Assembly (NCBI RefSeq): GCF_004010195.1
Contig: NC_057718.1
Location: 55,675,285-55,739,284, forward strand
Direction: 5' to 3'
Length of the DNA: 64,000 nucleotides
Source: Chiloscyllium plagiosum
Taxonomy: Eukaryota
In this document: positions 507 through 62,932 of the stretch, in pieces
Numbering within the stretch: position 1 is the first letter of the stretch
Layout of the letters: each line of letters starts with the position of its first letter
The notes under the pieces: generated by a model
What the model was told of the DNA's origin: nothing
What the model saw: only the letters and a program-made list of their open reading frames with translations
Databases searched by the model: none
Made by a program: the position numbers and the translations under genes

Positions 507-722
507 TCGAGTGTGTGGTGCTAGAAAAGCACAGCAGGTCAGGCAGCATCCGAGGAGCAGGAGAATCAAACTTACAGGCAAGAGCGGCCTCATTTCTGAT
601 GAAGGATTCTTGCCCGAAATGTCAATTCTCCTGCTTCTCTGATGCTGCCTAACCTGCTGTGCTTTTCTAGCACCACACTCTCAACTCTGATCTCCAGCAT
701 CTGCAGTTCTCACTTTCTCCTC
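507..722. mobile_element. PLE inverted pseudo-LTR insertion, family A
   Basis: gagtgtgtggtgctagaaaagcacagcagg... arm and its reverse complement plus tail ...ctcactttctcc; degenerate flanking duplication atgcaggcgttaaga / atgcaggggctaaga; decayed CTGATGA..GAAA motif at ~596-625. Confidence 0.75.
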
Positions 723-1084
723 ATGCAGGGGCTAAGACTGTTTCAACCTTATAGACTCCCAGACCTGCAATGCCTATATTCTCATCCTCCTGGCTTTGGT
801 TCTAGGCCAAATCTATATTACCATACCTAGAGATGTAAATGCCTTCTGGAGTAAAATGCCCAGGTAATTTCCTCCCTTGCCTGTTTGAAGGTTGGGTTCT
901 TGCTCATCACCTCCTAAATTGATATTTGTTAAGCAGCAGACAGTTAACACAGGTATGATTACAATAGATTACTTGGGTGTTCACCACATTATAGTACTGT
1001 ACATCACTTGGCTATTATTTAATTGTTTTTATTTAAATATTTGCTTGGTCGTGTATAACTTAAACACTTAAAAAGAGTAAAGAA

Positions 1085-1575
1085 GTTGAAGCTTTTCATC
1101 TTACACTCATCAGAATTAAGATGAAAGAAACCAGATTTGAATAAATAACATTAATTTAAACAAAGTGAGGGGCTAATTGGGAGGGCCATTTTTGGCGCGG
1201 TGATGCAGCAGAAACAGTTAACTGTCAATCTTAATTCACAAACTATGCTATTGACTGTAATTTGTTTGGGAATTGCCATGGGAATGTAACAGAATTGAGA
1301 GATCCATGACAGCATTTCTTTTTGCTACCCCCATTTCTCCTTGCTACACCCACCTCCCACCCTCCAAACCTCCAATCAAAAGATGCAGTGTATATACAAA
1401 TTTGTTCTGCCTAAAACAGGGTCCTGTTTGATGATATATGTAGCTTCTAGTGACCACAAATGTATCACACTGTAAGTCCAGCTAATGGTCTCAGATTGGT
1501 TTTGTATTCTGATTTTTTTTTTTGGCACAGTCTGAATTATTTAAATGTTGTTCAGTAGCAGAATCTGATCTGATG
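1085..1575 (-). mobile_element. PLE 3' fragment (GIY-YIG C-terminus plus hammerhead-bearing end), separate old family
   Basis: Minus strand reads IRSDSATEQHLNNSDCAK...HLWSLEATYIIKQDPVL, like PLE endonuclease C-termini (SAIxxHL...LEAxxI...PxL), followed by CTGATGAgtgtaagatGAAAagcttc. Confidence 0.6.
1086..1115 (-). ncRNA. Minimal hammerhead ribozyme-like motif
   Basis: Reverse complement tt-CTGATGA-gtgtaagat-GAAA-agcttc-aa; palindromic AAGCTT stem III, UUC triplet; stems I and II weak. Confidence 0.5.
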
Positions 1576-1579
1576 TTGG

Positions 1580-1915
1580 TCTTAGTATTCTGAAGACCTC
1601 ACCATATAGTTGATGAATCATCTTCATTTTGAAATATCACCTTAAGGAAGCACTGAGGGACTCCAGTTGGAAGATTTCAATGTCCATCAAGAAGAATAAC
1701 TCAGAAGCATAACTACTGACCAAGTTCACTACACCCTAAAGGTTGTTTTTGTTAAGTGGGTCTGTGTCAGGTGGTGAGGGAACCAACAGAAGGTAAATAT
1801 CTCTTTGACCTCAATCTCACCAAGCTACCTGTTGCAGATGTGTCCTTTGATGACAGACCTTATCAGTACAAGTGATCACCACAGTCCTTTTGGTGATGTA
1901 ATCTGACTTCACAGT
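1580..1915 (+). mobile_element. Decayed CR1/L2-group LINE fragment (same family as 51365-55030)
   Basis: aggaagcactgagg..., gtggtgagggaaccaacagaagg, ctcaccaa..tacctg..gcagatg match 51670-51950. Confidence 0.55.
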
Positions 1916-1960
1916 CGACCTAAAGGCACAGGAGCAGGAGTTAGTCATTCAACTCATTGG

Positions 1961-2175
1961 GAGAAAGTGAGAACTGCAGATGCTGGAGATCAGAGCTGAA
2001 AATGTGTTGCTGGAAAAGCGCAGCAGGTCAGGCAGCATCCAAGGAGCAGGAGAATTGACGTTTCGGATATGAGCCCTTCTTCAGGAATGAAGAAGGGCTC
2101 ATGCCCGAAACATCGATTCTCCTGCTCCTTGGATGCTGCCTGACCGGCTGCGCTTTTCCAGCAACACATTTTCAG
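1961..2175. mobile_element. PLE inverted pseudo-LTR insertion, family A
   Basis: Perfect TSD cattcaactcattgg (1946-1960, 2176-2190); ~34 nt tail, then fold-back arms centred near 2087; hammerhead core on minus strand ~2056-2086. Confidence 0.88.
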
Positions 2176-2589
2176 CATTCAACTCATTGGGTCTGCTGTA
2201 ACATTCAATAAGATCATGGCTGATTTGAATCATTAACTCCACTTGCCTATTTATTCTCCATAACTCTTAATTCACTTACAGATTACAAATCTGTCTCTTG
2301 GCCTTTAACATAGTAAATGACCCATGATATTTAGCCCTCCACAATAACGAATTCACTACCCACTGAGATGAAATTTCTCCTCATCTCTATCCTAACTGGG
2401 CAATTCCTTACTCTGAGATTATGCCCTCTAGTACTAGATCTTCCAAAAAGGGAAACAACCTCTCTGCATCTACCCTGTCAAGCTTGCTAAGAATTTTTGT
2501 GCATTTCATTAAGGACTCTTCATTCTTCTTAACTTCAATGAGTACAATACAACTTACTCACCCTTTCATAATATTTGAATTCACATAAG

Positions 2590-2820
2590 AACAGATTCAA
2601 GAACAGCTTCTTCCCCCATTATCAGACTTTTGAATGGACTTCTCAAATGTTGATGTTGATCTCTCTCTCTCTCTGTGCATCTTTTCTGCTGCTATAACAT
2701 TGTATTCTGCACTCTGTTCTGCTACCCTGAAATACTTTGTATAGTGCAATCTGCCTGTATAGTATGCAAAACAACATTTTTCACTGTATCTCGGTACATT
2801 TACAATGATAAATCCAACTC
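2590..2820 (+). mobile_element. Rex1/Babar LINE 3' end
   Basis: agattcaagaacagcttcttccc..atcagacttttgaatggac..ttttcactgtatctcggtaca matches the 3' ends at 23880-24120 and 61880-62110. Confidence 0.65.
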
Positions 2821-2896
2821 AAACTCGTAAAGCAGTACCTCTGTACCTGTGTTCAACATGGTGAATCTTCTTTAGACTATCTCTAATGTCAACTAG

Positions 2897-3011
2897 GAGA
2901 AAGTGAGGACTGCAGATGCTGGAGATCAGAGCTGAAAAATGTGTTGCTGGAAAAGTGCAGCAGGTCAGGCAGCATCCAAGGAGCAGGAGAATCGATGTTA
3001 TGGGCATAAGC
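2897..3011 (-). mobile_element. Truncated solo PLE pseudo-LTR, family A
   Basis: Same sequence as 1961-2075 and 19975-20090. Confidence 0.8.
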
Positions 3012-6000
3012 CAGTACATCTTTCTTTGGATAAAGTCACAAATTGTTCAAAATTCCAGTTGTGGTTTAACCAGTGCCTTGTACAGATTTTTCATCCTTTT
3101 TTTAAAATACTCCAATTGCTTTGAAATACCAGACAACATTCCATTTGCCATCCCTATTACTTGCTGACTTTCTGTGCTTACATGTTGAGGTTTATGCATA
3201 AGGACTTCAAATTCCCTCTATGCTGCAACCTTTTACAATATACAGCTCTTCCATTCTTCCTGTCAAAAGTGCATAACCTCACATTTTCCCATGTTATATT
3301 CATCTGACAAGTTTTTGTCCACTTGTTTAATCTGCCTACATCTCTTTGTAGACTCTATTGTCCTCATAAATTGCCTTCCCACCTTTTTTTTAAATCCTTA
3401 ATTTGGTTATATAGTATTTTGACTTCCTTCATCCAAATCATTTATTTATATTATAAGTAATCAAGGCCCCAGCATTGATTCCCTGTGGTTCTCCAATAGT
3501 TACAGTCTACTAGCCTGAAAATGTCCCCTATTATTGCATCTCTTTGTCTTCTGTTAGTCAGCCAGTTCTCCATCCATGTTAATATACTATCAAACGCTTT
3601 CTAGAAATCCAAATATACCCACTGCTACCCTGCTTGTTGCTTATTAATTCTGCTTGTTAATTTCTCAAAGAATGGGCATTATTGCCCCCCACCCCCTTTT
3701 TGTTTGAAGCCATGCTGACTCTGCTTGGTTATATTACGTATTAATAAATGCTGTAACATTAGATTATTTTATCACAGACTCTAATATTCCCCAATTACAG
3801 ATATTTAGCATTTTACCTGTTTTTCATCTTTTTAATAAAGCTGTTGGAGGATTGAAAAACTGTCATTTTTCCAGAATCTGAATATTCTTGGTTGACTACA
3901 ACCAGTGCATCCATCATCTCTGCTACTGTTACTTATTAATATCCTAGAATGCATCCCATCAGATCCAGACAGCTTAACAGCCTTCAGCCTCATTAATTTC
4001 ACGAATGGTATATGTTCTATTTATTCCCCCCACCACACCTTTGTTTTTCCCATTTGATTTTGTATTGTTGGAATATTATTAGTATCTTTTCCTGTGAAGG
4101 TTGATGCAAAATATTTATTAAATTCCTCTGCCAGTTCTTGGTTCCCCATTATTATTTTCTTTCCCTCATTATCTAAGGATCTATGTTCATTTGAGCCTCT
4201 TTTTGATATATATGAAGTTCTTGCTGACTGTCTTGGTATTACTTGAAAATTTACTCTCAATGTTTGTTTTCTTCCGTTTTTTTGCTCATCTTTTTTTGGT
4301 TTTAAAACTCTCAATCCTCGAGCTTACCATTAATCTTTGATGCATTGCATTTTTTTTTACTTTCAATTGGTTGCTATCTTTGACTTCCATGGTTGGCTTA
4401 TTCCTTTCCTCAAATCCTTCTTTCTTAGTGGAATATATCTTTATGGGCCAAGACCTATTTTCTTCAACTATCTTTGCTACTAAGCTTCTTTCCATTCAAC
4501 TCCAGCTAACTCCACCATTATTCCTTTATAATTACCCTTATTTTGTTTAGTTGGATCTTTGACTCTGAAATCTCTATTAAACCTGCCTCCTTGCACATCA
4601 CTAGGTCCAAAATAACTTGATCTACATTGTTCTAAGAAACTGTCTGGAACACCATTGAATTCTTCCTTTGCCAATGCAAGGAAACGCTACCTCTGCCAAT
4701 TTAACTTGCCCAATCTACATGACGATTAAAGTCACCAAACAAACGTTCATTTCAGGTTTTGTTGTGTTGGAGAGGGATCTTAAAGAGTGGTTTGAGTCCC
4801 GTATACAGAAGCAAAAACTGATCTTTATTCTGAGCTCCTTGTTTATTATAGTGTGGAAGAAGTCTCTAGGATTTTTCCAATAAAGTATAAGATATTTATA
4901 CATATCGTGTTACAATGGTTATGTACAATATTGACATCAGTGCTTGCCACGTCTTCTCTGGCCTAAACATTGAATCCTGTGAATACACGTTCACTCATGG
5001 ACAGCTTTTTGGTCAACCCTAGGTCCTTCCATCATTGCCAGACTCCTTGGGCTCTTACAATATATTGTATTGACTACATTTTAAACACTAGTTGGTTTGT
5101 TCCTTCCCAGACATCTGCCTGGGACATATATTTGCTTATTACTAATGACTTTTTAAATTCTGTTCGCAATTTATAATTCTGGGTAACCTTAGTTCAGAAG
5201 ATTAGAAAAGGATGTTAATTTTGATCAATTGTTATAAAAGTTTGTAACATTAACTCTAATATAATGTTATTTATAAAGTTACACCTTATATTACAATCTT
5301 GTGACAAAGTTGACAATTTTGGAAGCAGCTTCCCTCTTACCCAACTTTAAAAATTCAAACACAGTTTCTCTGAGCAGCTGCCATTTACAACTTCTTCTGT
5401 TTGTATCCTGCAAAATGTTCTAAAACAGATGTTTGATACTAGAATGGATTTATTATCATACCTTTAAACACTTTTCATACTAACTGTCTTTACTATTCAA
5501 ATCCAAATGAAATTTATCACTTTTACAGCTTTAGCAAATCATTTTTTAAATAAAGCTTATTTAGATGCTTTAAGGTTCATGGGGACATGGCCTCTTCCTC
5601 TCCCTTCTCTTATCATTTTTCTCTGCCAATCTTCCCTTGTACTTTAGGCTGTTTGTTAGAAAACGGCTATTATTTATTTTCTCAAGGTCATGGTGACTGT
5701 ATTTCCCAATTTTTTCAGCCCCCCTTTGTCTCTTGGTACTCTTACTAGATTTTGTTCTAACCTTCCTGATGGAATAAAGGTTTCTCCAAGGGTGTATATC
5801 GATACTAGTATCTGCATCCAAGGCTGACTGCCAACAGAAGTCTAATTAAATTTACCAATGTCTAATACATTCAAACTACTATTATTGTATGAATATATGT
5901 GTCTACTCTAAAATGTAATTATAATTATTTAAAATGCCTCATTTAAGGTAGGTCAAGCTTTCCCTTTCCATTTCATAATAAAATAGGACATTTAAAATCA

Positions 6001-7655: not shown

Positions 7656-7791
7656 TCCACAGTCACATTGTTTGAAGCTAATGCTGAGTTTCTGGAGACA
7701 TTTGGAGGCTTCCGTTGACCACAAAGAGGTAAATTATGACATTGCCTAAATTTAGGATGCACGTTTGCTCACTGAGCTGTAGGTTTGATAT

Positions 7792-7831
7792 CCAGACGTT
7801 TCATTATCTGGCTAGGTAACATCATCAGTGG
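7792..7831 (-). ncRNA. Minimal type I hammerhead ribozyme motif
   Basis: Reverse complement cca-CTGATGA-t-gttacc-tagcca-gataat-GAAA-c-GTC-tgg. Confidence 0.75.
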
Positions 7832-8546
7832 CGACCTCCAAGTGAAGCGAAGCTGTTGTCTCCTGCTTTCTATTTATATCTTTCTCCTGGATGGGGTTCC
7901 TGGGGTTTGTGGTGATGTTATTTCCTGTTCGTTTTTTGAGGGGTTGATAGATGGCATCTAGATCTATGTGTTTGTTTATGGAGTCTGGCATGTCTTTGCT
8001 TAGCCTGTGGTGGGTTTTTTCATCCGTGTGTAGGGCTACGAGGGAGAGAGGGTCGTGTCTTTTTGTGGCTAGCTGGTGTTCGTGTATCCTGGTGGCTAAC
8101 TTTCTTCCTGTTTGTCCTAGGTAGTGTTTGTGGCAGTCCTTGCATGGAATTTTGTAGATGATGTTGGTGTTGTCCATGGGTTGTACTGGGTCTTTTAAGT
8201 TTGTTAGTTTTTGTTTGAGAGTGTTGGTGGGTTTGTGTGCTACTAGGATTCCAAGGGATCTTATTAGCCTGGCTGTCATTTCTGAAACTTCTTTGATGTA
8301 TGTCCCATTTCGACTGGGACAACACATCTATCCTGGGACAGACTAAGCAAAGACATGCCGGAGAATTCCTAGAGGCCTGGCACTCCAACCACAACGCCAT
8401 AAACAAACACATAGATCTAGATGCCATCTATCAACCCCTCAGAAAACGAACAGGAAATGACATCACCACAAACCCCAGGAACCCCATCCAGGAGAAAGAT
8501 GTAAATAGAAAGCAGGATACAACAGCTTTGCTTCACTTGGAGGTCG

Positions 8547-8586
8547 TCACTGATGATGTTACCTAGCCAGATAATGAAACGTCTGA
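8547..8586 (+). ncRNA. Minimal type I hammerhead ribozyme motif (sense to EML6)
   Basis: tca-CTGATGA-t-gttacc-tagcca-gataat-GAAA-c-GTC-tga; predicted cleavage after 8583. Confidence 0.75.
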
Positions 8587-9727
8587 ATATCAAGCCTATA
8601 GCTCAGCAAACAAACCTACACCCTAAACCTCAACCTGAGCTACAAACCTTCACAAACCTTGCAAAAAATTGCCTAAATGATGACATTGCTTCCCATAGTT
8701 ATGAGGATGGTAGTTGCACTCCCATATCTGTTAAACCTCAGCAGGATGTGCTGAGCAGGCAGTTGTAAATGGAATTTCTTGTGTATTGAGCGGAGAATAA
8801 GGTTTCTTTTTAAAAAGGTACTCCCCTGAGATGCTCTTCTCACATTATCAGCATGTGCTGATGTTAATGCATGAGGAGAAATGCCTTTAGAGCCTTCATT
8901 AAAGAGGTGGTGACACCTCCTTGGAGCTGCAAATCAAGGCTGGGATTTCCTTCCCAGTGGCTGGGGGGTTCACCATCATCTCTTCTCTGCAATGGTAGTC
9001 CTTTTCAGCTGAGAGCAATGTGTTGTAATTTACAGTTCAGGACTATCTAGGAATGATAAAGGTATTCAACAGGAGAAGAGACATTCTCCTTTTCTGTTTA
9101 AGGAGGGATGACCAAGATGAAAGAATGCATGTGTTCATCAGGATGGCATTCTTCTGGATGGTTTTGAGCACCATTAAATTCATGTAAATTTGGCTTTTTG
9201 GGATACCATTCAAGGAGGAGCATTATCAAATTATCTGGAATATGTTTTCATACCACAGGTCATCCACCTTCTATCTACAGACATTTCTGCATTTTCTTCA
9301 GTGTTCACTCACTTTCCTAGTGGGAGATTCTTTTCAGCTGCTTCAATGCAGCAACAGTTTCTGTTCTCTGTCCTTAATACTGGGGTGGATTTCATGATCC
9401 AGATAATCTGCAGATGGTTTACATAGCTGTATTGTTAGGGTTCAGTTACGCCAAAAGTGCATTTTCGATATATTCTTTGGTAGTCAATGATGTTTATAAT
9501 GGGAAAGTGGAGAAGTTATTAGAAAACTACAAGTGCCATCCACAGAACCGTCAGTCTGTTATCACTGATTTTTTAATCAAGGAGCTCCTCCATTTAGAGG
9601 TATAGTCAGGGACAGAAACATTAACTGAGTGATGTCAGATTTGCTATCAATGATATACTGTACTCAATTTCCTTTTCCATGGGGCATCTATACAACACAT
9701 GTGACCACTTATCACACTGAGAAGTAT

Positions 9728-9917
9728 GTTGAAACTTTATTGCTGGAACAGCACAGCAGGTCAGGCAGCATCCAGGGAACAGGAGATTCGATGTTTCGGG
9801 CACAGGCCCTTCTGCCCGAAACGTCGAATCTCCTGTTCCCTGGATGCTGCCTGACCTGCTGTGCTGTTCCAGCAATAAAGTTTCAACTTTGATCTCCAGC
9901 ATCTGCAGACCTCACTT
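9728..9917. mobile_element. PLE inverted pseudo-LTR insertion, family A variant
   Basis: ~75 bp near-perfect inverted arms (9728-9887) plus tail; TSD tcacac(t/c)gagaagtat at 9712-9727 and 9918-9933. Confidence 0.88.
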
Positions 9918-11319
9918 TCACACCGAGAAGTATAACATGAACAGTAAATCTAGAACTGAAGACCTCCTATCTTGACAGATAACGATTATCTAGTACATGA
10001 ACAAACAGGCTCTGAATAGCTCAGGCAGATTATAAACTAACTTCTGGTGCCTGAATCACAAAATGACCCTTGCAACAAACTTTCATCCTGACAATTTAAC
10101 AGGCAGTTGTCAGTTCAACTATATCAAGATATTCTATGGGTAGACTTCTGCATCACTACCTAGCATGTTACCATCTACTTTTTCAGTACGTTAAGAATTT
10201 CAGATTAGAAGCTGAATGACATTATCCTAAAAAATAAATTATATGTGATTCCTCCACTTCCCCTAATCCATTAGGGCAGCAAATGCAGTAGCAGGTATTG
10301 CCCATAGGTGTGCTAAACATCCCATAACAGATGCAGCTGGGAGGCCCTGTTTATATTTTCTTGCCAGATGAATATAATTTAAGATCAGAGAGCACCTAGA
10401 CTACTACTTGCTCACCCTTTTGGTTCATGGGATGGAAACTTTTCCCCTAGCAACCATCCTTCTTACTTCTGTTTTTCCATTTAATCAATTTACTTCTACA
10501 CACCAGTATTATGAAAACATCTGCTGGTGCCCAAAATCTCCCCTACAGAACTCCAAGTATTTCCATCATGTGTTTTATGCATTGGGAAAAGCATTTTTAA
10601 AATTGAAATGGGATGACTTCACATTCTGATTGTAAATTAATTCCTCAATAAATGCAAGTGTTATTTCTGAACTAGTGGTCCTAGCACTGAATCCAGAATC
10701 ACATTATCTACTTTTAATGCCATTGCAAGAGAAGAAAACATATGGAACAAATCTACATCTGAGCTTTTTAGATGGTTTTATAAACTGTGGTTCTTTGATA
10801 TCCTGAAATTAAACAATTTTAATTTATACAAAGGAGAAATCTCTCCAAACTGAGAGGTTACATTGTACATCATGTTTTAACAGATTTCAGATTAAGGTGT
10901 TTATTTGACCATAATACCATCATTTGCACAGGATATCAATTGGTTTGGATTTTGCAGTCAGCAGAAATGAATAATCCATAATACTTAGACTTGCTTAATA
11001 CTTATTGCAGACTTTGGGCACTAGTACATGTGATTATTAGGGACCTAAAGGAGTCTGGCACCTCCTCTATAGGTGACCTGGGACCTACGTGTATAGGGCA
11101 AACAGTTGTTTATCTACTTTTACCATTCAGATTAAAAATTAGAATCAGTGACTAACCAAACATGTGTTTGGAACATTTAATTCACTGACAATATACAGAA
11201 AGACAAATGAGGAAAGAAAGACAGGATTAAGAAATTAATAACTGGATGGTTGGAAAAATATTGTCTGGTTCATTCCTTCAGTGAGTATTGATAGAAATAA
11301 CAGTGAAGCTGTTGCAAAC

Positions 11320-14119: not shown

Positions 14120-14540
14120 ATAGAATCCCTACAGTGCAGGTATAAGCTATTCAGTTCAACAAGCCTGCACTGTGACCCTTGAAAGAACATCCTACCCTAT
14201 CCTCATAATCCCACATTTACTATAGTTAACCCACTTAGCCTGCACACTACAGATAGACAAGCAGAAGGCTGGAAGAACACAGCAAGCCAGACAGCATCAG
14301 GAGGTGGAGAAGTCAATGTTGCAGGTGTAACCCTTCTTCATGACACTACAGGGCAATTTAGCATGACCAATCCACATAACATGCACATTTTTTGACTCTG
14401 GAAGGAAACTGGAGCATCCGAGGAAATCCACACATATATGGGGAGAACGTATGAATTCCATACGATCACCCAAGGCTGGAATTGAACCTATGTCTCTGGC
14501 ACTGAGGCAGCAGTGCTAACCACTGAGCCACCATGCTGTC
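14120..14540 (-). mobile_element. V-SINE (HE1-like), older copy
   Basis: Reverse complement of 29567-29880 (ggcagcagtgctaaccactgagccaccatgc head; ggaaactggagca..gaggaaatccac V domain). Confidence 0.85.
14253..14342 (-). mobile_element. Short PLE pseudo-LTR (further family) nested in the SINE
   Basis: TSD acactacag (14244-14252, 14343-14351); gaacacagcaagccagacagcatc resembles family A; decayed hammerhead tgaagaagggttacacctgcaacatt on minus strand. Confidence 0.65.
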
Positions 14541-19973: not shown

Positions 19974-20526
19974 GGGAGAAAGTGAGGACTGCAGATGCTG
20001 GAGATCAGAGCTGAAAAATGTGTTGCTGGAAAAGCGCAGCAGGTCAGGCAGCATCCAAGGAGCAGGAGAATCAACGTTTCGGGCATAAGCCCTTCTTCAG
20101 GAATGAGGAAGGTGTGCCAAGCAGACTAAGATAAAAGATAGGGAAGAGGGACTTGGGGGAGAGGTGTTGGGAATGCGATAGGTGGAAGGAAGTTAAGGCG
20201 AGGGGTTCTCCAGCTTCCTCATTTCCCCTCTCCCTACCTTATCTCAGTTCCAACCCTCGGACTCAGCACTGCCTTCTTGACCAGCAATCTTCTTCCCGAT
20301 CTCTCCGCCCCCACCCCCTCTCCGGCCTATCACCCTCACCTTAACCTCCTTCCACCTATCGCATTCCCAACGCTCCTCCCCAAGTTCCTCCTCCCTACCT
20401 TTTATCTTAGCCTGCTTGGCACACCTTCCTCATTCCTGAAGAAGGGCTTATGCCCGAAATCTCGGTTCTCCTGTTCCTTGGATGCTGCCTGACCTGCTGC
20501 GCTTTTACAGCAACACATTTTTCAGC
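19974..20526. mobile_element. PLE inverted pseudo-LTR insertion, family A, just upstream of the EML6 exon
   Basis: TSD ccaacactatttat (19960-19973, 20527-20540); ~195 bp inverted arms 20010-20204 / 20333-20526. Confidence 0.9.
20071..20102 (-). ncRNA. Minimal hammerhead ribozyme motif
   Basis: Reverse complement tc-CTGAAGA-a-gggc-ttat-gccc-GAAA-c-GTT-ga; stem I only 2 bp. Confidence 0.6.
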
Positions 20527-20610
20527 CCAACACTATTTATCCAGCCTGTGTTTTTAAAATGTGAATAAAATATGGAATTTTCTGTGTTAATTGACCAAAT
20601 ATGTTTTTAA

Positions 20611-20841
<231 letters not shown>

Positions 20842-24122: not shown

Positions 24123-24276
24123 GCCCTAACTGGAAATATCCACTTGTGTAATTTAAAGAACCTTGGTCAAAAAGAGAAGTGAAAGGTAGTAAACCAAAAG
24201 GTCTATATGAATTCCAAAATCTAAGGCTGTATTACTCAAACAAAAGTTGTATTCCTTAGAATTTGGAAAGTTAGAG

Positions 24277-41426: not shown

Positions 41427-41660
<234 letters not shown>

Positions 41661-41814: not shown

Positions 41815-42109
41815 CAAAATACTGCAGATGTTGAAAATCTGAAACAAATATCGAAAATGCTGGAGCAACTCAGCAGGTCTGGCAGCATCCCCAGAGAGAG
41901 AAATTGAGTTAAAATGTCAAGTCTGACATGACTTCTTCACTGAACCTCTACACTGTTCGACCCCCGTGGTCCTCCTCCACCTTTGTCAAAGTGTAAAAAA
42001 AACACCACTTTAAACTCCTTTCAGCTGTGAAAAAATATTATCTGTTTTTCTCTCTCTACAGGTGATACCAGATCTCCTGAACTTTCCCAGTATTTCTCTG
42101 TTTGTTTCA
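41815..42109. mobile_element. Old PLE-like inverted pLTR insertion downstream of the EML6 exon
   Basis: ctgcagatgttg..tgaaacaaa..aatgctgg..ctcagcaggtctggcagcatc arm and decayed reverse complement ending tttgtttca; aagaaag on both flanks. Confidence 0.6.
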
Positions 42110-42118
42110 AAGAAAGTA

Positions 42119-44519: not shown

Positions 44520-45320
44520 AGCCACGCCAATATTTTTACCCATCCAAAATTGCCTTTGAAGCTGGTGCCTCTTTCAACAGCTACATTCCATGCAAGGTCG
44601 GTGTTGTTCGGAAGGGGGTTCCAGAATTCTTAGGAAATGACTGTGCAGGAGGAACAATATAGTTCCAAGTCAGTTTATAATTTGAAGGGGATCTTGCAGG
44701 TGTGTTGCCTCAATGTCTGCTACCCATATCCTTCAAGGTGATAGAGATTACAGTTTTGGAAGATTCTGTTGAGGAACCTTTGTGAATTGCTACGGTGCAT
44801 CTTATAGATTCTAAAGCACCATTACAACTGGTAGTAGAGGGAGTGAATACGTAAGCTGAGGATGCTTTGTCCTGGATGATGTCCAGCTTCTTGAGAGTTG
44901 TTGGAACTGCTCCTGTCCAGCTAAGTGGAGAGTGTTCTGTCATACCTCTGAGTTGTGTCTTGTAGGTACTGGACAGACTTTGTGAAGTTAGGAGGTGAGA
45001 TACTCACCACTGAATTCCTAACTTCTGATCTGCTTTTGTAGACACTGTATTAATCTTGAGAGTGTGGTGCTGGAAAAGCATAGCAGGTCAGGCAACATCC
45101 GAGGAGCAGGAGAATTGACGTTTTGGGCAAAAGCCCTTCATCAGGCTTTTGCCTGAAGCTTCGATTCTCCTGCTCTTTGGATGCTGCCTGACCTGCTGTG
45201 CTTTTCCAGCACCATACTCTCGACTTTAATCTCCACCATCTGCAGTCCTCACCTTCACCTACTGTATTTATATGGTTAATTGAGTTTCTGGTCAATTGCA
45301 ACCCTGATGACATCATCATT
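44520..45320 (-). mobile_element. CR1/L2-group LINE 3' fragment
   Basis: TEHSPLSWTGAVPTTLKKLDIIQDKA. Confidence 0.75.
45055..45260. mobile_element. PLE inverted pseudo-LTR insertion, family A
   Basis: Fold-back arms centred near 45143 plus tail; TSD actgtatt(a/t)at at 45044 and 45261. Confidence 0.85.
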
Positions 45321-45811: not shown

Positions 45812-48800
45812 AGTCATAGAGACGTACAGCACGGAAACAGACCTTCACTCCAAGTTGTCCATGCCGACCAGATATCCCAACCTAATCTAGTTCCACTTGC
45901 TGGCACCCGACCTATATCCCTCCAATCCTTCCTGTTCATACATCCATCCAATTTCCTTTTAAATGTTGCAATTGTAGTGGCCTGAACCACTTCTTCTGGC
46001 AGCTCATTCCATACACGCATCACTCTCTGCATGTAAAAGTTACCCCGAGGTCTCTTTTATATCTTTCCCCTCTCACCCTAAACCTATGCCCTCTAGTTCT
46101 GGACTCCCCCACCCCAAGGGAAAAGACTTTGTCTATTTATCCTATCCATGCCCCTCATGATTTTATAAACCACGATAAAATCATCCCTCAGCCTCCAATG
46201 CTCCAGGGAAAACAGCCCAAGCCCATTCAACCTCTCCTGTAGCTCAAATCCTCCAACCCTGGCATCATCCTTGTAAATCTTTTCTGAACCCTTTCAAGTT
46301 TCACAACATTCTTCTGATAGGAAGAAGACCAGAATTGCACGCAATATTCCAAAAGTGGCCTAACCAACATCCTGTATGGCCGCAAAATGACCTCCCAAAT
46401 CCTATACTCAGTGCTCTGACCAATAAAGGAAAGTATACTAAATGCCTTTTTCACTATCCTATCTACCTGCGACTCTAATTTCAAAGAGCTGTTAACCTGC
46501 ACTCCAAGGTCTCTTTGTTCAACAGCACTCCCTAGCACCTTATCATTAAGTGTATAAATCCTGCTAAGATTTGCTTTTACAAAATGCAACACCTCATATT
46601 TATCTAAATTAAACTCCATCTGCCACTCCTCAGCCCATTGGCCCAATGATCAAAAACCCATTTGTATTCTGGGGTAACCTTCTTCACTGTCCACTACACC
46701 TCCAATTTTGGTGTCATCTGCAAATATACTAACCATACCTCCTATATTCACATCCAAATCATTTATATAAATGACAGATAGTAGTGGACCCAGCACCGAT
46801 CCTTGTGGCACACCACTGGCCACAGGTCTCCAGCCTGAAAAACAACTCTTCACCACTACCATCTGTCTTCTACCTTTGAGCCAGTTCTGTATCCAAATGA
46901 TGAGTTCTCCCTGTATTCCATGAGCTCTAACCTTGCTATCCGGTTTCCCATGGGGAATTTTGTCAAACGCCTTACTGAAGTCAATATAGATCACGTCCAC
47001 CACTCTGCCGTCATCAATCCTCTTTGTTACTTCTTCAAAAAACTCAATCAACTTCGAGGGACATGATTTCCCACACACAAAGCCACATGGACTGTCCCTA
47101 ATCGGTCCTTGCCTTTCCAAATATGTGCAAATCCTATCCTTCAGGATTCTCTCCAACAACTTGCCCACCACTGATGTTAGGCTCACTGGTCTATAGTTTC
47201 CTGGCTTGTCCTTACCACGTTCCTTCATTAGTGGTACCACATTAGCCAACCTCTAGTCTTCCAGCACCTCACCTGTGACTAGCGATGATACAAATATCTC
47301 AGCAAGGGGCCCAAAATCAACTTCCCTAGCTTCCCACAGAGTTCTCGGGTACACCTGATCAGGTCCTGGGGATTTATCCACCTTTATGCATTTCAAGACA
47401 TCCAGCACTTCCTCCTCTGTAATATGGACATTTTTCAAGATGGCACCATCTATTTCCCTCCGTTCTATTTTTGCTACATCCTTTTCCACAGTAAACACTG
47501 GTGCAAAATATTTGTTTATTATCTACCCCACCTCCTGCGGCTCCAAACATAGGCTTCCATGCTGATCTTTGAGGGGCCCTAATCTCTCCCTAGTTACCCT
47601 TTTGTCCTTAATGTATTTGTAAAAACCCTTTGGATTCTGCTTAACCCTATTTGCCGAAGCTATCTTATGTCCCCTTTTTGCCCTCCTGATTTCCATTTCA
47701 AGTATACTCCTACTGTCTTTATACTCATCTAAGGATTCACTTGATCCTGACTATACCTGACATATGCTTCCTTCTTTCTCTTAACCAGACCATCAATTTT
47801 TCTCGTCATCCAGCATTCCCGACACCTGCTAGCCTTTCCTTTCACCCTAACAGGGATATACTGTCTCCGGATTCTCATTATCTCATTTATGAAGAATTCC
47901 CATTTTCCAGCTGTCCGTTTACCTGTGAACTCTACCCCCAATCAACTTTTGAAAGTTCTTACCTAATGCCATCAAAATAGGCCTTCCTCCAATTTAAAAC
48001 TTCAACTTTTAGATCTGGTCTATCCTTTTCCATCGATATTTTAAAACTAATAAAATTATGGTCACTGGCCCCAAAGTGCTCCCCCACTGACACCTCAGTC
48101 ACCTGCCCTGCCTTATTTCCCAAGAGTAGGTCGGGTTTTGCACTTTCTTGAGTATGTACACCCACATACTGAATCAGAAAATGTTCTTGCACACACTTAA
48201 CAAATCCCTCTCCATCTAAACCCTTAACACTATGGCAGTCCCAGCCTATGTTTGGAAAGTTAAAAATCCCTTACCATAACCACCCTATTATTATAGAGTC
48301 ATAGAGATGTACAGCATGGAAACAGACCCTTCATCCAACCTGTCCATGCCGACCAGATATCCCAACCCAATCTAGTCCCATCTGCCAGCACCCGGCCCAC
48401 ATCCCTCCAAACCCTTCCTATTCATATACCCATCCAAATGCCTCTTAAATGCTGCAATTGTACCAACCTCCACCACATCCTCTGGCAGCTCATTCCATAC
48501 ACGTACCATCCTCTGCATGAAAAAGTTGCCCCTGAGGTATTTTTTATATCTTTCCCCTCCCACTCTAAACCTATGCCCTCTAGTTCTGGATTCCCCAACC
48601 CCAGGGAAAAGACTTTGTCTATTTATCCTATCCATGCCCCTCATAATTTTGTAAATCTCTATAAGATCACCCCTCAGCCTCCGATGCTCCAGGGAAAACA
48701 GCCCCAGCCTGTTCAGCCTCTCCCTATAGCTCAAATCCTCCAACCCTGGCAACATCCTTGTAAATCTTTTCTGAACCCTTTCAAGTTTCACTGCATCTTT

Positions 48801-49830
48801 CCGATAGGAAGGAGACCAGAATTGCATGCAATATTCCAACAGTGGCCTAACCAATGTCCTGTCCAGCCGCAACATGACCTCCCAACTCCTGTACTCAATA
48901 CTCTGACCTATAAAGGAAAGCATATCAAACGCCTTCTTCACTATCCTATCTAACTGCGACTCCACATTCAAGGAGCTATGAACCTGCACTCCAAGGTCTC
49001 TTTGTTCAGCAACACTCCCTAGGACCTTACCATTAAGAATTGCATGCAATATTCCAACAGTGGCCTAACCAATGTCCTGTCCAGCCGCAACATGACCTCC
49101 CAACTCCTGTACTCAATACTCTGACCTATAAAGGAAAGCATATCAAACGCCTTCTTCACTATCCTATCTAACTGCGACTCCACATTCAAGGAGCTATGAA
49201 CCTGCACTCCAAGGTCTCTTTGTTCAGCAACAGTCCCTAGGACCTTACCATTAAGTGTATAAATCCTGCTAAGATTTGCTTTCCCAAAATGCAGCACCTC
49301 GCATTTATCTGAATTAAACTCCATCTGCCACTTCTCAGCCCATTGGCCCATTCTTAACAGATAACTGAAATCTTCCAAATTTGTTTCTCAATTTCCCTCT
49401 GACTATTAGGGGGTCTACTATACAATCTCAATAAGGTGACCATCCCTTTTCCTATTTCTCAGTTCCACCCAAATAACTTCCCTGGATGTATTCCCAGGAA
49501 TATCGTCCCTTAGGACAGCTGTTCACAGCTGTAACACTATCCCTTATCAAAAATGCCACTCACCCATCTCTCTTACATCCATTTCTATCCTTCCTGTAAC
49601 ATTTGTATCCTGGAACATTAAGCTGCCAGTCCTGTCCATCCCTGACCCATGTTCTGTAATTGCTGTGATATCCCAGTCCCATGTTCCTAACCATGCCCTG
49701 AGTTCATCTGTCTTCCCTGTTAGGCCTTTTGCATTGAAGCAAATGCAATTTAATTTATCAATCCTACCTTGTTTTCTGCTTTGTCCCTCCCTGCCTGCTC
49801 TGACTGTTTGACTCACTTGCAAATCCCAAC
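45812..49830 (-). mobile_element. CR1 LINE (HER1-like), near-complete ORF2 with few disruptions
   Basis: CICFNAKGL..ITET, PGNYRPVSLTSVVGK, YIDFSKAFDK, GVPQGSVLGP, FADDTK, YCVQFWS; (tctatgac)-type tail. Confidence 0.95.
48293..49350 (-). mobile_element. Second CR1 3' fragment nested in the same family, with internal tandem duplication
   Basis: Own tail atagagtcatagag at 48293; host sequence caccctattatt|cttaacagata resumes at ~49351. Confidence 0.9.
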
Positions 49831-54200: not shown

Positions 54201-54532
54201 AAACTTTGTGAGAAGATTTGTAGCTCGGGTGCTCATTGCTGTGGTTCTGTTCGCCGAGCTGGAAGTTTTTGTTGCAAACGTTTCGTCCCCTGCCTAGGTG
54301 ACATCCTCAGTGCTTGGGAGCCTCCTGTGAAGCGCTTCTGTGGTGTTTCCTCCGGCATTTATAGTGGCCTGTCCCTGCCGCTTCCGGTTGTCAGTTTCAG
54401 CTGTCCGCTGTAGTGGCCGGTATATTGGGTCCAGGTCTATGTGTTTGTTGATGGAGTTTGTGGATGAGTGCCAAGCTTCTAGGAATTCCCTGGCTGTTCT
54501 TTGTTTCGCTTGCCCTATAATGGTAATGCCCT
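54201..54532 (-). mobile_element. Poseidon-type PLE 3' fragment (second family)
   Basis: TSD ataactcccctcc (54188-54200, 54533-54545); minus strand IIGQAKQRTAREFLEAWHSSTNSINKHIDLDPIY, homologous to 8330-8440. Confidence 0.88.
54274..54313 (-). ncRNA. Minimal type I hammerhead ribozyme motif
   Basis: Reverse complement gca-CTGAGGA-t-gtcacc-taggca-ggggac-GAAA-c-GTT-tgc. Confidence 0.72.
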
Positions 54533-55693
54533 ATAACTCCCCTCCTGACGCCCAAAACCAGTCCATCAACTACAAGGCACAAGCCAGGTGTGTGATAGAA
54601 TATTGCTGACTAGTCTGGATGAGTGCAGCTCTAACAACACTCAAGAAGATTGACTCCATCCAGGACAAAGCAGCCGTTTTATTTGGCATCACATTCACAA
54701 AATTTCATTCCCTCCACCACTAAGGCTTGGTAGCAGATATTCACCAGGGGTCCTGAGACAGCACCTTCCAAGCTTACAACTACTTCTATCTATAAAGACA
54801 ATGGCAGCAAATCCTGCAGGTTCCCCTTCAAGCCATTCACTATCCCTAACTTGAGAGTCTATCATCTTTCCTTCACTGTCTCTGGGTCAAAATCCTTGAA
54901 TTTCCTCCCTAATGACAGGGTGGATCCATCTACAGCACATGGATTGCAGCAGTTTAAGAAGGCAATTCACCACCATCTTTTCAAGGGCAACTAGTGATGG
55001 GCACACCCACATTCCACAAGTGAATAAAAATATCCAGTTAATATGCATTCAACCTTCACTTTCTTTAAATAAAGCAAACAACCAAAATTTCTTGATAAAT
55101 TAAATTAGACATCTCCATATTAAGTACAATGCATCGCATCATGAGACAGCCCTCCTCAGAGACCTCAAACAATGGTCTTTGTACGTGCATTTTCTGTATA
55201 AAACAATTAGGTAATTGTGTTCAATCCTTTAGATTTAGTAGGTTATTTCTCTGCATGATTTGTTTCAAACAGCAAGATTAATTTATATCAGATTTTCATA
55301 CAGTTTACTTTGTTCCTGAATGAACAATTATTGATGTAACATTCATGTAAATACAATCTTCAATATAACACTTATTAAGATCTCACTCAAAATGTTTAAC
55401 AACTAACATCCCACATTGACTACCTTCACAAAATCAAAATTTCAACAACTCAAGAATTTATAACAAACCATTTTATCTCAATTTAAAGGGTAATACTTTC
55501 ACCCACAAGCAATGCTTTAAAACCAGCTGCACTAGACTACCTATGAGGAAAATTAGTATGTTAGGTGTTACTAATCATGATCAGTTTCATGGTCATTACA
55601 CATTTCAAGAATACAGTTCCTAATTCCAGCGCTACGGTTTTAATATGCATCTACTTCTCTGCTCTCAAGTAAATTGCAAGCTAATGTCCACAT

Positions 55694-56513
55694 GTGGAGT
55701 CACAGGTAGATAGGATAATGAAGAAGGCGTTTGGTATGCTTTCCTTTATTGGTCAGAGTATTGAGTACAGGAGTTGGGAGATCATGTTGTGGCTGTACAG
55801 GACATTGGTTAGGCCACTATTGGAATATTGTGTGCAATTCTGGTCTCCTTCCTATCGGAAAGATGTTGTGAAACTTGAAAGGGTTCAGAAAAGATTTACA
55901 AGAATGTTGCCAGGGTTGGAGGGTTTGAGCTATGGGGAGAGGCTGAACGGGCTGGAGCTGTTTTCCCTGGAGCATTGGAAGCTAAGGGGTGACCTTATAG
56001 AGGTTTATAAAATCATGAGGGGNNNNNNNNNNNNNNNNNNNNNNNNNNNNNNNNNNNNNNNNNNNNNNNNNNNNNNNNNNNNNNNNNNNNNNNNNNNNNN
56101 NNNNNNNNNNNNNNNNNNNNNNNNNNNNNNNNNNNNNNNNNNNNNNNNNNNNNNNNNNNNNNNNNNNNNNNNNNNNNNNNNNNNNNNNNNNNNNNNNNNN
56201 NNNNNNNNNNNNNNNNNNNNNNNNNNNNNNNNNNNNNNNNNNNNNNNNNNNNNNNNNNNNNNNNNNNNNNNNNNNNNNNNNNNNNNNNNNNNNNNNNNNN
56301 NNNNNNNNNNNNNNNNNNNNNNNNNNNNNNNCAGAGGAAGTGGTGGAGGCTGGTACAATTGTAACATGTAAAAGGCATTTGGATGGGTATATGAATAGGA
56401 AGGGTTTGGAGGGATATGGGCTGGGTGCTGGCAGGTGGGACTAGATTAGGTTGGGATATCTGGTCGGCATGGATGGGTTGGACCGAACATCCTGTACATC
56501 TCTATGACTCTAT
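55694..56513 (+). mobile_element. CR1 3' fragment spanning an N gap
   Basis: LYRTLVRPLLEYCVQFWSP; tail tctatgactctatg; gap 56023-56331. Confidence 0.9.
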
Positions 56514-57429
56514 GTATAAAGTTAACCACAACTAATGTCCAATTAATTAACACTGAAAATGTGAGAAGCTGTATTGCTTTTTCTTTTTATATTCCATAAT
56601 TTTCCAGATGGATTTCCACTCTGATCCATTGGCCTAACAATATCTCCTGGTGAGGCCTTCCAACTGATCTTTTAAAAATATATATATTTGGTTCCATCTT
56701 CTGCTTTCATGCTTCATAACACGCTCTAATTTAAATTAAATGGGTTGACATTAACAAAGATGAGTGAGGAATTTAAGATATACAAGATGAAGGCAGCTCA
56801 CAATCTTTTTGGATTTTAGAAGTTCTGTCTGCTTCAAAGTTTATTGCTATTTTAAAAATTTTTGCAAATATGTTTTCCACTAGGATATTAACTTTGATGA
56901 CTTAATAGTGAATTACCCTGATTCAGTCATAACAACAAACATTTATTTCAGATCATCAGGTTGGCTGTTATGTTTGCTTTCTGACTATCATAAGTTAAAT
57001 ATGGAGAATCGGTTTACATTCAGTATGGCTTTTTAAGTTTTGGAGGGGCAGGTTGTGACTTTAACAATGATGTTCAGGCTTCACAAGCTGTCTGTAAAAG
57101 AGCAGCTGAATGAAGGTGGATATACACTGGGATGTCAGTAATGGCCACCCTTGGGAATCATGTACATGGAGGCAGTGAAAGGGTGAATGGCATAGAGGGG
57201 AACTTGGGCAGCAGTAAATGCTTGGTCAGTGCAAGTGATCATTACCCTTCTAGCATTGAGAGAATAAGAAGATGAGGCATGGCTACAAAATACAGTTTTT
57301 AGAAGTTATCGGAGCACTCAAGAAAAGCAAAAATTCGCGATGGGGACATGACTAACAGATTTTAAGCTGAGCAGTGATGAAGTGCAACACCTTTCACAGA
57401 AAGGGCAGAGCATTAGATAGCCAGCGGAA

Positions 57430-58873: not shown

Positions 58874-59512
58874 TTTATTGGTCAGAGCATTGAGTCTTTC
58901 CTTTATTGGTCAGAGCATTGAGTATAGGAGTTGGGAGTCATGCTGCGATTGTACAAGACAATAGTTAGGCCACTTTTGGAATATTGCGTGCAATTCTGGT
59001 TTCCTTCCTATCGGAAGATTGTTGTGAAACTTGAAAGTGTTCAGAAAATATTTACAAGGATGTTGCCAGGGTTGGAGGATTTGATCAATAGGGAGAGGCT
59101 AAATAGGCTGGGGCTGTTTTCCCTGGAGCGTCAGAGGCTGAGGGCTGACCTTATGGAGGTTTATAAAATCATGAGGGGCATGGATAGGATAAACAAAGTT
59201 TTTTTCCCTGGGCTCGAGGAGTTCAGAACTAGAGGGTATAGGTTTAAGGTGAGAAGGGAAAGCTTTAAAAGGGACCTAAGGGGCAACATTTTCATGCAGA
59301 GGATGGTATGTGTATGGAATGAGCTGCCAGAGGAAATGGTGAAGGTTGGTACAATTACTGCATTTAAAAGTAATCTAGATAGGTATATGAATAGGAAGGG
59401 TTTAGAGGGATATGGGCCAAGTGCTGGCAAATTAGACTAGATTAAGTTAGGATATCTGGTCGATATGGACAGGTTGGACGAAAGATCTGTTTCCATGCTG
59501 TGCATCTCTATG
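58874..59512 (+). mobile_element. CR1 3' fragment
   Basis: ORF 58931-59440 LYKTIVRPLLEYCVQFW..VWNELPEE; 22 bp duplication tttattggtcagagcattgagt at its 5' junction. Confidence 0.92.
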
Positions 59513-60184
59513 AACCAATATGTACTTGTAGCGTAGAATGGAAAATAGTATATGGTTATATGTAGAAAGCACTACAATGACCCAATTCTTGGCCACATCT
59601 TTAGATGACATGCCCCTGACAAGACATAAGATGTAAGAGCAGAATTAGCTCATTCAACACATCTTTCTACTCTTGAGTGAGAATATCTGTTTGTGACACT
59701 TATAAGGGACATCAAATACCAGAAAACCTATGTTGGAGAGGTATTTGTAGCATAACTTTAAAATTAAGTGTGGTACCCTCTGTATCGCTTGATTCTGTCA
59801 GTTGTAAACAGTGCTTTGTGAACAAAAGGTTCACTTTTTGATAATGTGTTGCTAGCTCCCATGTGTTACTTGTTTTGCTTGCTTAAAACTATATTCACTT
59901 GCTTCAATTTTCTTAAAAGTGAACACTTTGCTGACTGGCAACAGTGCCATTGCTAATGTGATGCCAGTTGACTACAATTTCTCAGAGGTTCTGACCAGAA
60001 GTAATCAGAAGACAAAAGCATACATCATCATCCTGGAATGTGATCTATCATGTGATTTAAGAATATTCCAACTCCGCCAATGCAAATGACAAAGAAGCAA
60101 GATGTCTGTCGCAGCCAGTTCAAATCAAAGGAGCATTCAAAATTCATTATGGCTTGAATTGAACCTAACAACATTTTTAGAAAG

Positions 60185-60820: not shown

Positions 60821-60989
60821 ATGATATAATTAAACACTGGGCATTAATTGTGGATTCATTTGAGTCCTATAAACAGACACCAACTAAAAATGTGATTATA
60901 TAATTATAATATTTAAGTATAAAATTGAGTAAAGTTCGAACCTGTTTCAACTGACTTTTTGGAACGGAACACCCAGGACAAGTACTGTA

Positions 60990-61320
60990 CAGTACTTCCG
61001 AAGTGGAAACATGGTGCTAATTTGTGCACTGCCAAGACCCACACAGTAATGCAATATTTACCAGGTATTCTGTTTTTGTAATGTTGACTGAAGAATAAAT
61101 ATTGTCCAGGAGGCTGGGATATTTTCTTTGAAGTAGTGCTATGTGATCTGAGAAACCAGACTGGGCTTCAGTTTAACATCTTATTCAAGAGATGACAGTG
61201 AGATGCTTCTTTAATGTTGCACTGAAGTTTCAGTTTAGACTTTTGTGCTGAAATGGGACTTGAACCTACAATTGTTTGCCTCAGTGGTAAAAGTGTTGAC
61301 AACTGAACTAGGGCTAACTT
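60990..61320 (-). mobile_element. Old Deu-domain SINE (SacSINE1/AmnSINE-like)
   Basis: Reversed tRNA head gggacttgaacctacaa..ctcagtgg and Deu-like core gtttaacatcttatt..gacagtg..gcactgaag..cag, aaatattgtccagg. Confidence 0.6.
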
Positions 61321-61584
61321 GTCATGCAAACATAGAAATACATAATTTGCTTATCTGAAATTTCTTTCTCAACTCTTGTCAACTGCCCATTAATATTTAC
61401 ACTAGTGCCAATGTTTTGTGTCAATATTGAATTTTGAAATACACCATTATGAGATATCATAATTATCATTATTCTATCCTGACCAGACATTTAGACCAGT
61501 TGAGATAGCAATCCACATAATGGGATGGCAATAAATTATCTATGTTACTGCTAAGAAATGTTAAAAAAAAATTAACAGGGTTCA

Positions 61585-61806
61585 CATAAAAAATTTACAC
61601 AGAGACTGACTTGTGGAGAATGAACTTTCAGAGCAAGTGGTAGATGCAGGTACAGCTACATTTAAAAGGCATTTAGATAAGCACACAAATAAGAAACAAT
61701 TGGAGGGATCAGGACTAAGCATAGGTAGGTGGGACTAGTTGAGGTTGGGATTATGGTCAACATGGACTGGTTGGACCAAAGGGTCTATTTCCATGCTATG
61801 ACTCTG
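61585..61806 (+). mobile_element. CR1 3' end fragment
   Basis: tttacacagag..gtggtagatgcaggtaca..ttggaccaaagggtctatttcc..tgactc. Confidence 0.75.
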
Positions 61807-61877
61807 ACTAATATTGTATCAAAGAGTGAGTGAAAATCAGAGCACTTGGCTAATTCATAATTCTGCACTCAGCGAAG

Positions 61878-62405
61878 GATTTGATTTGATTTATTGTCAC
61901 ATCTATGTAAGTACAGTGAAAAGCTTTGCGAGTAGTACAGGCAGATCATAGTAAGTAAGGACATACAGATCACAGGGTGAAAGAAACTTGGATAGAATGA
62001 GGCATACAGGATTGCACCATACAGGACGTGCACAAGGCAAGATCAACATTTTTGAAGTTAGAGTGTCCATTCATCAGTCTAATAACAGCAGGGAAGAAAC
62101 TATTCTTGAACCTGCTGGTGCGTGTGTTCAAGCTTCTGTATCTTCTGCCTGACAGTAGAGGTTGTACCAGGATGGGGTGGGTCTTTGATGATGTTGGCAG
62201 CCTTTCCATGGCAACGGGAGATGTAAATGGAGACCATGGCTGGGAGTTGGCTTTCGTAATGGTATGGGCTGTGCACACATCCTTCTATAGTTTCTTGTGG
62301 TCCTGGGCAGAGCAGTTGCATACCAGGCCATTATGTAGCCGGACAGTAAACTTTCTGTGGTGCATTTTTAAAAGTTGATGAGGGTCCTTATGGTCATGCT
62401 GAGTT
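61878..62405 (-). mobile_element. Rex1/Babar LINE 3' fragment
   Basis: LLSGRRYRSLNTRTSRFKNSFFPAVIRLMN; reversed aataaatcaaatc tail. Confidence 0.88.
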
Positions 62406-62804
62406 TCGACGTACGAGTATTAAATGTGGTTGTAACACACTAGCATTGATTCTCTGATTTGCACTCTTTTTTTCACTCATGCCTGCTCTTGAGGCTGTGA
62501 GATTGCTGAATATACTTAGCTAGTGCAGTGAACTGTGGCTATAATTATGTGCCTAGATTGTGAAGGCAGAAATGTTTAAAAAGCAACATGGATTCCATGT
62601 TTGTGTGTCCAAATTGTTAGTAAATAATAATCTTTATGAATTTAAAAATGCTTGCGATGTATTTTGAATGAAAATCCTTTGTGTTTGATTATGTTCAGGA
62701 ATCAGAAAAATATCCTCACCACTATATCACCCAATACTTTGTAAAAGGGCACTGTTGTTGAAATCTAATTATTTAATAAAGATTACAAGCAGTATTTTTA
62801 GATA

Positions 62805-62932
62805 TTCCCAATGAAGGGCTTATATCCAAAACGTTGATTCTCCTGCTCCTCAGATGCTGCCTGACAAAAGTGCTTTGCCAGCACCACACTCTCAACTCTG
62901 ATCTCCAACATCTGCAGTCCTCACTTTCTCCT
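62805..62932 (+). mobile_element. Solo PLE pseudo-LTR, family A
   Basis: TSD agtattttt(a/g)gata (62791-62804, 62933-62946); begins at the decayed hammerhead, ends with tail. Confidence 0.85.

Follow-up and report, generated by a model that had tools for sequence, protein, structure and literature searches.

Here, we analyze a 64,000-nt stretch of the genome of the shark Chiloscyllium plagiosum (contig NC_057718.1, positions 55,675,285 to 55,739,284; called the window below), which sits within the plus-strand EML6 gene and contains six motifs that an earlier note had taken for minimal hammerhead ribozymes of Penelope-like elements (PLEs). We think it likely that these motifs are hammerheads carried in the pseudo-long terminal repeats (pLTRs) of five PLE families, A to E, one of which, family D, is braced by a pseudoknot. 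Families A, B, C and E are ordinary and just add a new taxon to a known list. On our best reading of its sequences, family D represents a predicted hammerhead that is pseudoknot-braced, dimer-dependent and specific to one PLE lineage, a combination of known parts that was not found in print within the literature covered.

Results

Family D is represented in the window by one 5′-truncated PLE copy (1030–1593, minus strand), comprising an endonuclease C-terminal remnant, a pLTR, the hammerhead and a tail. The hammerhead, at 1085–1128 (−), has C3 at 1113, G10.1 at 1106, a loop II strand at 1099–1104 and a stem III palindrome at 1089–1094, with the predicted cut after 1088. Helix II is reduced to the single pair G10.1–C11.1: G10.1 directly follows A9, with no bulge present, and nested folding formed a helix II hairpin in none of five D-type motifs. 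Helix III is a 6-nt palindrome, which suggests that ribozymes of the D type depend on dimerization. In at least three shark D subfamilies, whose linkers differ, a TCTTGC 6-mer lying 7–9 nt upstream of C3 complements the 6-nt strand GCAAGA; in the window copy, this upstream pairing strand is 1123–1128. Because the pairing, which we call the brace, crosses stem I, it would form a pseudoknot. The window copy itself is decayed at three positions, such that five of six brace pairs remain, C11.1 has become T, and stem I has 2 bp.

The idea of the brace was formed on shark copies, and relatives were then collected by protein only. This yielded 14 metagenome loci, ten with a hammerhead of the D layout and four that end before the pLTR. 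Nine of the ten metagenome hammerheads have a brace of at least 5.5 out of 6 pairs, at a spacing of 7–11 nt from the core. Seven helix sequences are represented in all: TCTTGC/GCAAGA of the shark, and TCTAGC/GCTAGA, TCTGAC/GTCAGA, TCCGAC/GTCGGA, TGACGC/GCGTCA, TCCAGT/GCTGGA and GGCTAG/CTAGCC of the metagenomes. In L133 and L139, the motif stands upstream of an uninterrupted open reading frame (ORF), and the L152/L153 locus shows the braced design again. Shuffled upstream sequence attains the brace score in 2.2% of trials (0.022 per family), and loop swapping among the eight loop sequences gives p=5e-5. In an 11-row alignment, which omits L136 and L137 (near copies of L135) and the rearranged L142, and in which L141 is misaligned, 93.8% of cells pair and both sides change in four of six pairs. 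The covariation score is 0.627, compared to 0.222 ± 0.053 for shuffled data; none of 500 shuffles reaches that score, and slid registers give 0.206 or less. Stem I, directly inside the upstream brace strand, also covaries, G10.1–C11.1 is kept in 10 of the 11 rows, and helix III is a 6-nt palindrome in eight. No complement of this kind exists in families A, B, C and E, whose best upstream pairing in any register scores 4.5–5.0. Judged from this pattern of substitution, the brace is very probably real, and we infer that it forms together with stem I. Some members of the D lineage could gain one more helix II pair (U–A) if the brace were shortened.

Two variants of the core occur within the braced type, namely a swap of the U3–A8 pair in L134 (1310) and U3 with G8 in L142 (1277). 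L152 and L153 represent a eukaryote-type PLE fragment with an inverted pLTR; its two copies share a contig in a bacterial metagenome-assembled genome, a probable case of contamination. Viral contigs contained no D-lineage protein and gave five pattern matches, in none of which could a brace or stem I be seen by eye.

The D pattern has 837 matches in the shark genome, versus 27 for a reversed control. Copies spared CpG decay read the core, G, T, the 6-nt strand, C, GAA, AAGCTT and H. At the C11.1–G12 dinucleotide, a hand count of the 100 listed of 218 D matches gave TG in 52, CA in 22, TA in 14, CG in 4 and other dinucleotides in 8, a decay pattern which implies that CG is ancestral and that the shark D family is dead. 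An ancestral G–U pair at 10.1–11.1 was considered and rejected on account of the CA copies, CA being the other product of CpG decay. Among the 14 protein matches fetched of 150, no young, intact D family was found in the shark genome. The proteins nearest to D are ORFs of 826–842 aa with reverse transcriptase (RT) and GIY-YIG domains and without a CxxC linker, and the tail of the window copy encodes the ORF N-terminus FKLYTTKQIFK (compare LKFCTTKNLFK of P0011). Family D has the traits by which PLEs are recognized: an ORF with RT and C-terminal GIY-YIG, a pLTR, a tail, 5′ truncation and inversion. Two other identities were tried and rejected. A chance match at 1086, suggested by the weak stem II, is at odds with 382 candidates in the genome and a motif common to the copies; and an LTR of another element class, suggested by CCAAT- and TATA-like boxes, is at odds with the GIY-YIG-type remnants, the tail and the inversions.

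In part of the D lineage, a second structure adjoins the predicted cut. RF00032, the histone 3′ UTR stem-loop, matches just 3′ of this position in three of the eight D-lineage metagenome loci scanned. Scores are 33.1 bits for L133 (E=3.7e-6), 27.7 for L138, 27.3 for L139 and 25.9 for L152/L153, all below the gathering score of 34, and the hairpins lie at L133:296–340, L138:1319–1365, L139:152–198 and L152:2735–2779. In L133 and L139, the hairpin is upstream of the ATG and flanked by ACCCA, and a purine-rich stretch precedes the ATG; their stem differs from that of L138 by one compensatory pair. The L152 hairpin overlaps Ala-Phe-Phe-Lys-Ala codons at the ORF start and so may come from coding sequence, serving the element's own protein. 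Shark family D copies do not have the histone-like hairpin, and viral contigs gave no match for hammerhead plus hairpin. One could imagine a single PLE lineage, ranging from sharks to metagenome organisms, with a fast, dimer-gated braced hammerhead, and within it a sub-lineage in which the histone stem-loop lets the cleaved, uncapped RNA use SLBP/U7; such use would serve translation or 3′ end formation. We regard this scenario as unlikely, its weak part being the histone link.

For the window as a whole, a strict scan required the core, stems I and II of at least 2 bp each and a palindromic stem III, tolerating one bulge after A9 in stem II (a variant without the bulge retained 1 site only, and the bulge-tolerant scan was adopted instead). 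Seven sites were found, with C3 at 596(+), 1113(−), 7828(−), 8550(+), 20100(−), 39242(−) and 54310(−). All six motifs of the earlier note are among them, correctly placed and oriented, and its stem I pairings and palindromes (ACGT, AGCT, AAGCTT) are present as well; the seventh site is 596(+). Markov-simulated windows contain 0.06 (order 1) or 0.13 (order 3) sites on average, with a maximum of 1–2 in 200 runs each, and a chance origin of the sites is excluded. No hammerhead family of Rfam matched the window or 10 D-type loci. The stem I difference cca/tgg versus tca/tga does not amount to covariation, since each change also occurs singly in other B copies.

Self-comparison of the window resolves the six named sites into five families, those at 7792 and 8547 being the two arms, 93.5% identical, of a single inverted insertion of family B. 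Families B and E are 64–66% alike; all other pairs of families give no alignment. Profiles built from genome copies detect 24 members in the window (15 of A, 2 of B, 5 of C and 1 each of D and E), of which 17 are truncated or decayed. In the genome of 3.56 Gb, first-look candidates number at least 2259 for A, 2765 for B, 3563 for C, 1495 for E and 382 for D, counts that are lower bounds, with 40 scored per family. The top copies are 95–97% identical to the window copy for A, 94–96% for B, 93–96% for C, 98–99% for E and 70–75% for D. Family E is young; a search of eight fetched E copies found no full-length element.

Families A, B, C and E share the core CUGANGA...GAAA...UH with type I stem closure, an extra base between positions 9 and 10.1 along with G10.1–C11.1, a hairpin helix II of 4–7 bp in intact copies, and an almost absent helix III with palindromic ACGT or AGCT. 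Motif reading and cross-matches place it in a pLTR that follows a PLE endonuclease. The earlier claim of five PLE families with minimal hammerheads stands as to the number of families, the pLTR site, the type I core and the palindromic stem III; the minimal form itself applies to these four families and not to D, which has a different architecture. In all five families, copies end sharply on the 3′ side and raggedly on the 5′ side, inverted partners occur, and endonuclease-type or RT remnant frames lie upstream of the motif. This pattern of ends and inversions is a PLE trait (PMC8557442). Families A and C have a CxxC linker ahead of the endonuclease, and such a linker marks the Neptune and Nematis clades (PMC8557442). 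The window copies are 3′ ends that were dead on arrival and have decayed since; an inverted partner often accompanies them.

The earlier note had also asked whether the core is conserved across families any better than its surroundings. Between families sharing the core, the 40-nt flanks match at just 4–14 of 40 positions, with the downstream flanks of B and E as the exception; a shared core is thus set in unrelated flanks, and across families it is better conserved than its surroundings, as the earlier claim required. Within families A, B, C and E, the top matches conserve core and flank equally (0.97–1.00 versus 0.98–0.99), as expected if selection acted on source elements rather than on inserted copies. 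In family D, which is old and has several subfamilies, conservation is 0.90 for the core and 0.76 for the flank.

The family B insertion (7751–8685) consists of an endonuclease fragment and pLTR on the minus strand and an adjacent inverted copy on the plus strand. Its hammerheads, at 7792–7831 (−) and 8547–8586 (+), have predicted cuts after 7795 and 8583, and in both C11.1 has decayed to T. The family E hammerhead (54274–54313, −) has its predicted cut after 54277 and its element end near 54200. In both families, A9, the bulged U and G10.1 spell ATG (at 54304 (−) in E, and 7822 (−) and 8556 (+) in B), opening a frame through the tail. Family E copies end about 105 nt beyond this ATG, with a second end 37–40 nt earlier. 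Family C has a hammerhead at 39211–39245 (−), with the predicted cut after 39214 and an inverted stub at 39604–39687; two longer insertions (24267–27466) with RT, CxxC linker and endonuclease remnants contain decayed hammerheads at 24267–24419 (−), 25465–25630 (−) and 27288–27466 (+).

The family A hammerhead at 20071–20102 (−), predicted to be cut after 20073, has an inverted, decayed partner at 20333–20527 (+). A short head-to-head pair at 491–735 carries the seventh strict site (596–623) in its plus arm. Further short pairs occur at 1951–2184, 9730–9932 and 45057–45268, and single copies at 2883–3017, 14268–14343, 17744–17907, 41821–41896 and 62804–62945. Several of the short copies form palindromes of head-to-head arms that meet within the core or stem II. 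In 11 of the 15 family A copies, the start falls in the interval from 14 nt before C3 to 11 nt past it, and no copy starts at the cut site. Sequence directly upstream of the core (20100–20116, −) can pair with the core, forming 8 of 9 pairs; such a hairpin would block the ribozyme or prime fold-back synthesis. A TATA-like box is seen 40–53 nt upstream of C3 in B, C and E (7878, 39282 and 54363, all −) and, decayed, in D (1160, −); none was found within 70 nt upstream of C3 in family A. Two raw single-cell polyA runs, a weak library type for this purpose, gave 404 matching reads in one and none in the other; 81% of the 404 continue into unlike flanks, and read ends do not pile up.

That the motifs lie in EML6 introns, as first proposed, is borne out by two plus-strand EML6 exons inside the window: 20612–20824 (+), covering residues ~482–553, and 41464–41628 (+), covering residues ~554–608 and 100% identical to a Chiloscyllium plagiosum protein named EML6. 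Of the six named motifs, only 8547–8586 is on the sense strand of the gene and the other five are antisense; the placement of the motifs in EML6 looks incidental. The sense-strand family A copy at 20333–20527 (+), whose stem III is broken, ends about 85 nt upstream of the exon at 20612. At G000:C10:30.04-30.35 Mb, a second large EML-type gene adjoins a reticulon gene, in an arrangement unlike that of the EML6 locus. Other decayed repeats occupy 22833–23830, 46227–49390, 55685–56516, 58887–59513 and 30352–30789 of the window; among them are RT-bearing LINE fragments, with Pfam RVT_1 on two frames. The frame at 30352–30789, which has no Pfam match, resembles a DNA transposase.

Discussion

We propose, building on published PLE work, that in the tandem-array transcript of an active element, two hammerhead copies would pair via the palindromic stem III and be cut after NUH. 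In the D lineage, the 6 nt before C11.1 would pair with the 6-mer just 5′ of stem I, and the resulting pseudoknot should tie helix I to helix II in the manner of bacterial and phage hammerheads. The braced, dimer-gated ribozyme would then trim the transcripts of tandem PLEs, each time shortly before the following ORF.

The minimal PLE hammerheads described by Cervera and De la Pena (2014; PMC4209133) match families A, B, C and E closely. They too are of type I, with the bulge, G10.1–C11.1, a hairpin helix II, a short helix I, a palindromic 15.2–16.2, a pLTR site and many families per genome. In the part of that paper used here, none of 56 listed motifs is from cartilaginous fish, and the shortest listed helix II is 3 bp, whereas family D has no hairpin helix II. 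The closest structural relative of the D type is the pseudoknot hammerhead (Zhan et al. 2024, PMC11300833, PDB 8YDC; Perreault et al. 2011, PMC3088659), in which helix II is likewise G10.1–C11.1 and a 6-bp pseudoknot joins the helix II loop to sequence attached to helix I. When a pseudoknot of this kind was broken, a natural ribozyme cleaved 20- to 100-fold more slowly (PMC3088659). There are differences, too. The pseudoknot hammerhead has a helix IV stem-loop and an A-minor triplex (PMC11300833), whereas the D lineage lacks helix IV (at most two flanking pairs in all seven cases); and it cleaves fast as a monomer with a stable helix III, in place of which the D lineage has a 6-nt palindrome. 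The D-type motif, moreover, is located in PLE pLTRs. Families B and E, for their part, resemble the Anolis Poseidon element PAc (Frangieh et al. 2024, PMC11167929): in B and E, as there, the ATG starts at stem II and the predicted cut lies 28 nt from its A. The end of family E about 105 nt into the ORF and the second end ~37–40 nt earlier also match, although the start codon of B and E is assigned by this analogy, no intact B or E ORF having been recovered. Association with PLEs and cleavage as dimers have been described for hammerheads with short stem III (Lunse, Weinberg, Breaker 2017). Non-LTR retrozymes (PMC7229834; bioRxiv 10.64898/2026.07.22.740005) also place type I hammerheads in animal repeats, in head-to-tail tandem units; by contrast, the PLE ends of the window are single, dispersed or inverted.

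Several observations weigh against the reading of the motifs as PLE hammerheads, or against the braced, dimer-dependent ribozyme within it. L142 scores 2.5, having no brace in place because its pLTR is rearranged. A brace score of at least 5.5 is found in only 9 of 36 shark D copies, all old and about half of them chosen for deviant loops. Among the alignment rows, the three from shark were chosen as well paired, and some rows are related. Nested folding gives −13 to −20 kcal/mol for active dimers of intact copies versus −30 to −42 for other cofolds. Starts of family A copies cluster around the core (11/15) rather than at the cut site. Cleavage of the Anolis element needed protein and was dispensable for insertion (PMC11167929). 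Pfam gives no GIY-YIG match on the decayed window frames tested, so the PLE assignment of A, B, C and E rests on the motif reading and cross-matches. Finally, in L133 and L139 the brace helix becomes, under nested folding, part of a plain hairpin that surrounds the core. This last result would suit an off-switch, in which the 6-bp helix of the D lineage encloses the core and blocks stem I until a protein or partner RNA opens it; also in keeping with a switch are the upstream hairpin of family A, which sequesters the core, and the slow or protein-assisted cleavage of PLE hammerheads in vitro (PMC4209133, PMC11167929). We consider such a switch quite improbable. D motifs have no other helix II, yet G10.1–C11.1 is kept in nearly every row; stem I, which the upstream strand directly adjoins, covaries too; and the pseudoknot hammerhead, in its solved active structure, combines a one-pair stem II with a 6-bp pseudoknot (PMC11300833).

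It is also possible, though unlikely, that the motifs are kept as signals for protein binding, translation start or reverse transcription, self-cleavage being unneeded for transposition. Catalytic mutants of the Anolis PLE insert normally in vitro, with no reads ending at the cut site (PMC11167929), Naiad PLEs are without canonical hammerheads (PMC8557442), a start codon lies inside the motif in B and E, and family A copies start near C3 as described above. What points to selection on catalysis is that the catalytic positions, the NUH rule and, through the swap in L134, the U3–A8 pairing are kept across unrelated families. A signaling role can nonetheless coexist with the braced, dimer-gated ribozyme. 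Regulation or cutting of EML6 pre-mRNA by some of the intronic copies is a far more remote prospect. There is precedent in the domesticated intronic hammerheads of amniote RECK and C10orf118 (PMC3088659), and two strict sites, 596 and 8550, lie on the sense strand. Both are damaged, with C11.1 lost at 8550 and a stem II of just 2 bp at 596. One is a family B copy and the other a family A copy, each without an intact partner on its own strand. Across the genome, candidates run from hundreds to thousands per family. The D copy of the window is decayed and lies on the antisense strand. Given neutral decay and the antisense orientation of most named motifs, the copies in EML6 pre-mRNA are most likely inert.

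The earlier suggestion of a notable, uncatalogued set finds no support: ribozymes of this kind are published for many metazoans, and one chondrichthyan genome contains hammerhead repeats according to the 2026 preprint. Perreault Dataset S1 lists 141 Branchiostoma type I motifs (PMC3088659). Our survey of the literature, whose scope excluded Lunse 2017, Weinberg 2015 and the Perreault alignments, found no report on sharks, on pseudoknots in PLE hammerheads or on histone stem-loops in PLEs. The brace is about as apt to be new for PLEs as to have been published already. Descriptors that require a hairpin helix II miss the braced type, so censuses of PLE ribozymes may be incomplete.

The minimal PLE hammerheads described to date cleave poorly, need protein, and are dispensable for insertion in vitro. 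A PLE lineage with a covarying tertiary brace offers a direct test of the role of these ribozymes. Fast cleavage of braced dimers at low magnesium, if observed, would mean that selection for cleavage is real in PLEs, and dimer gating could then be studied separately from slow folding.

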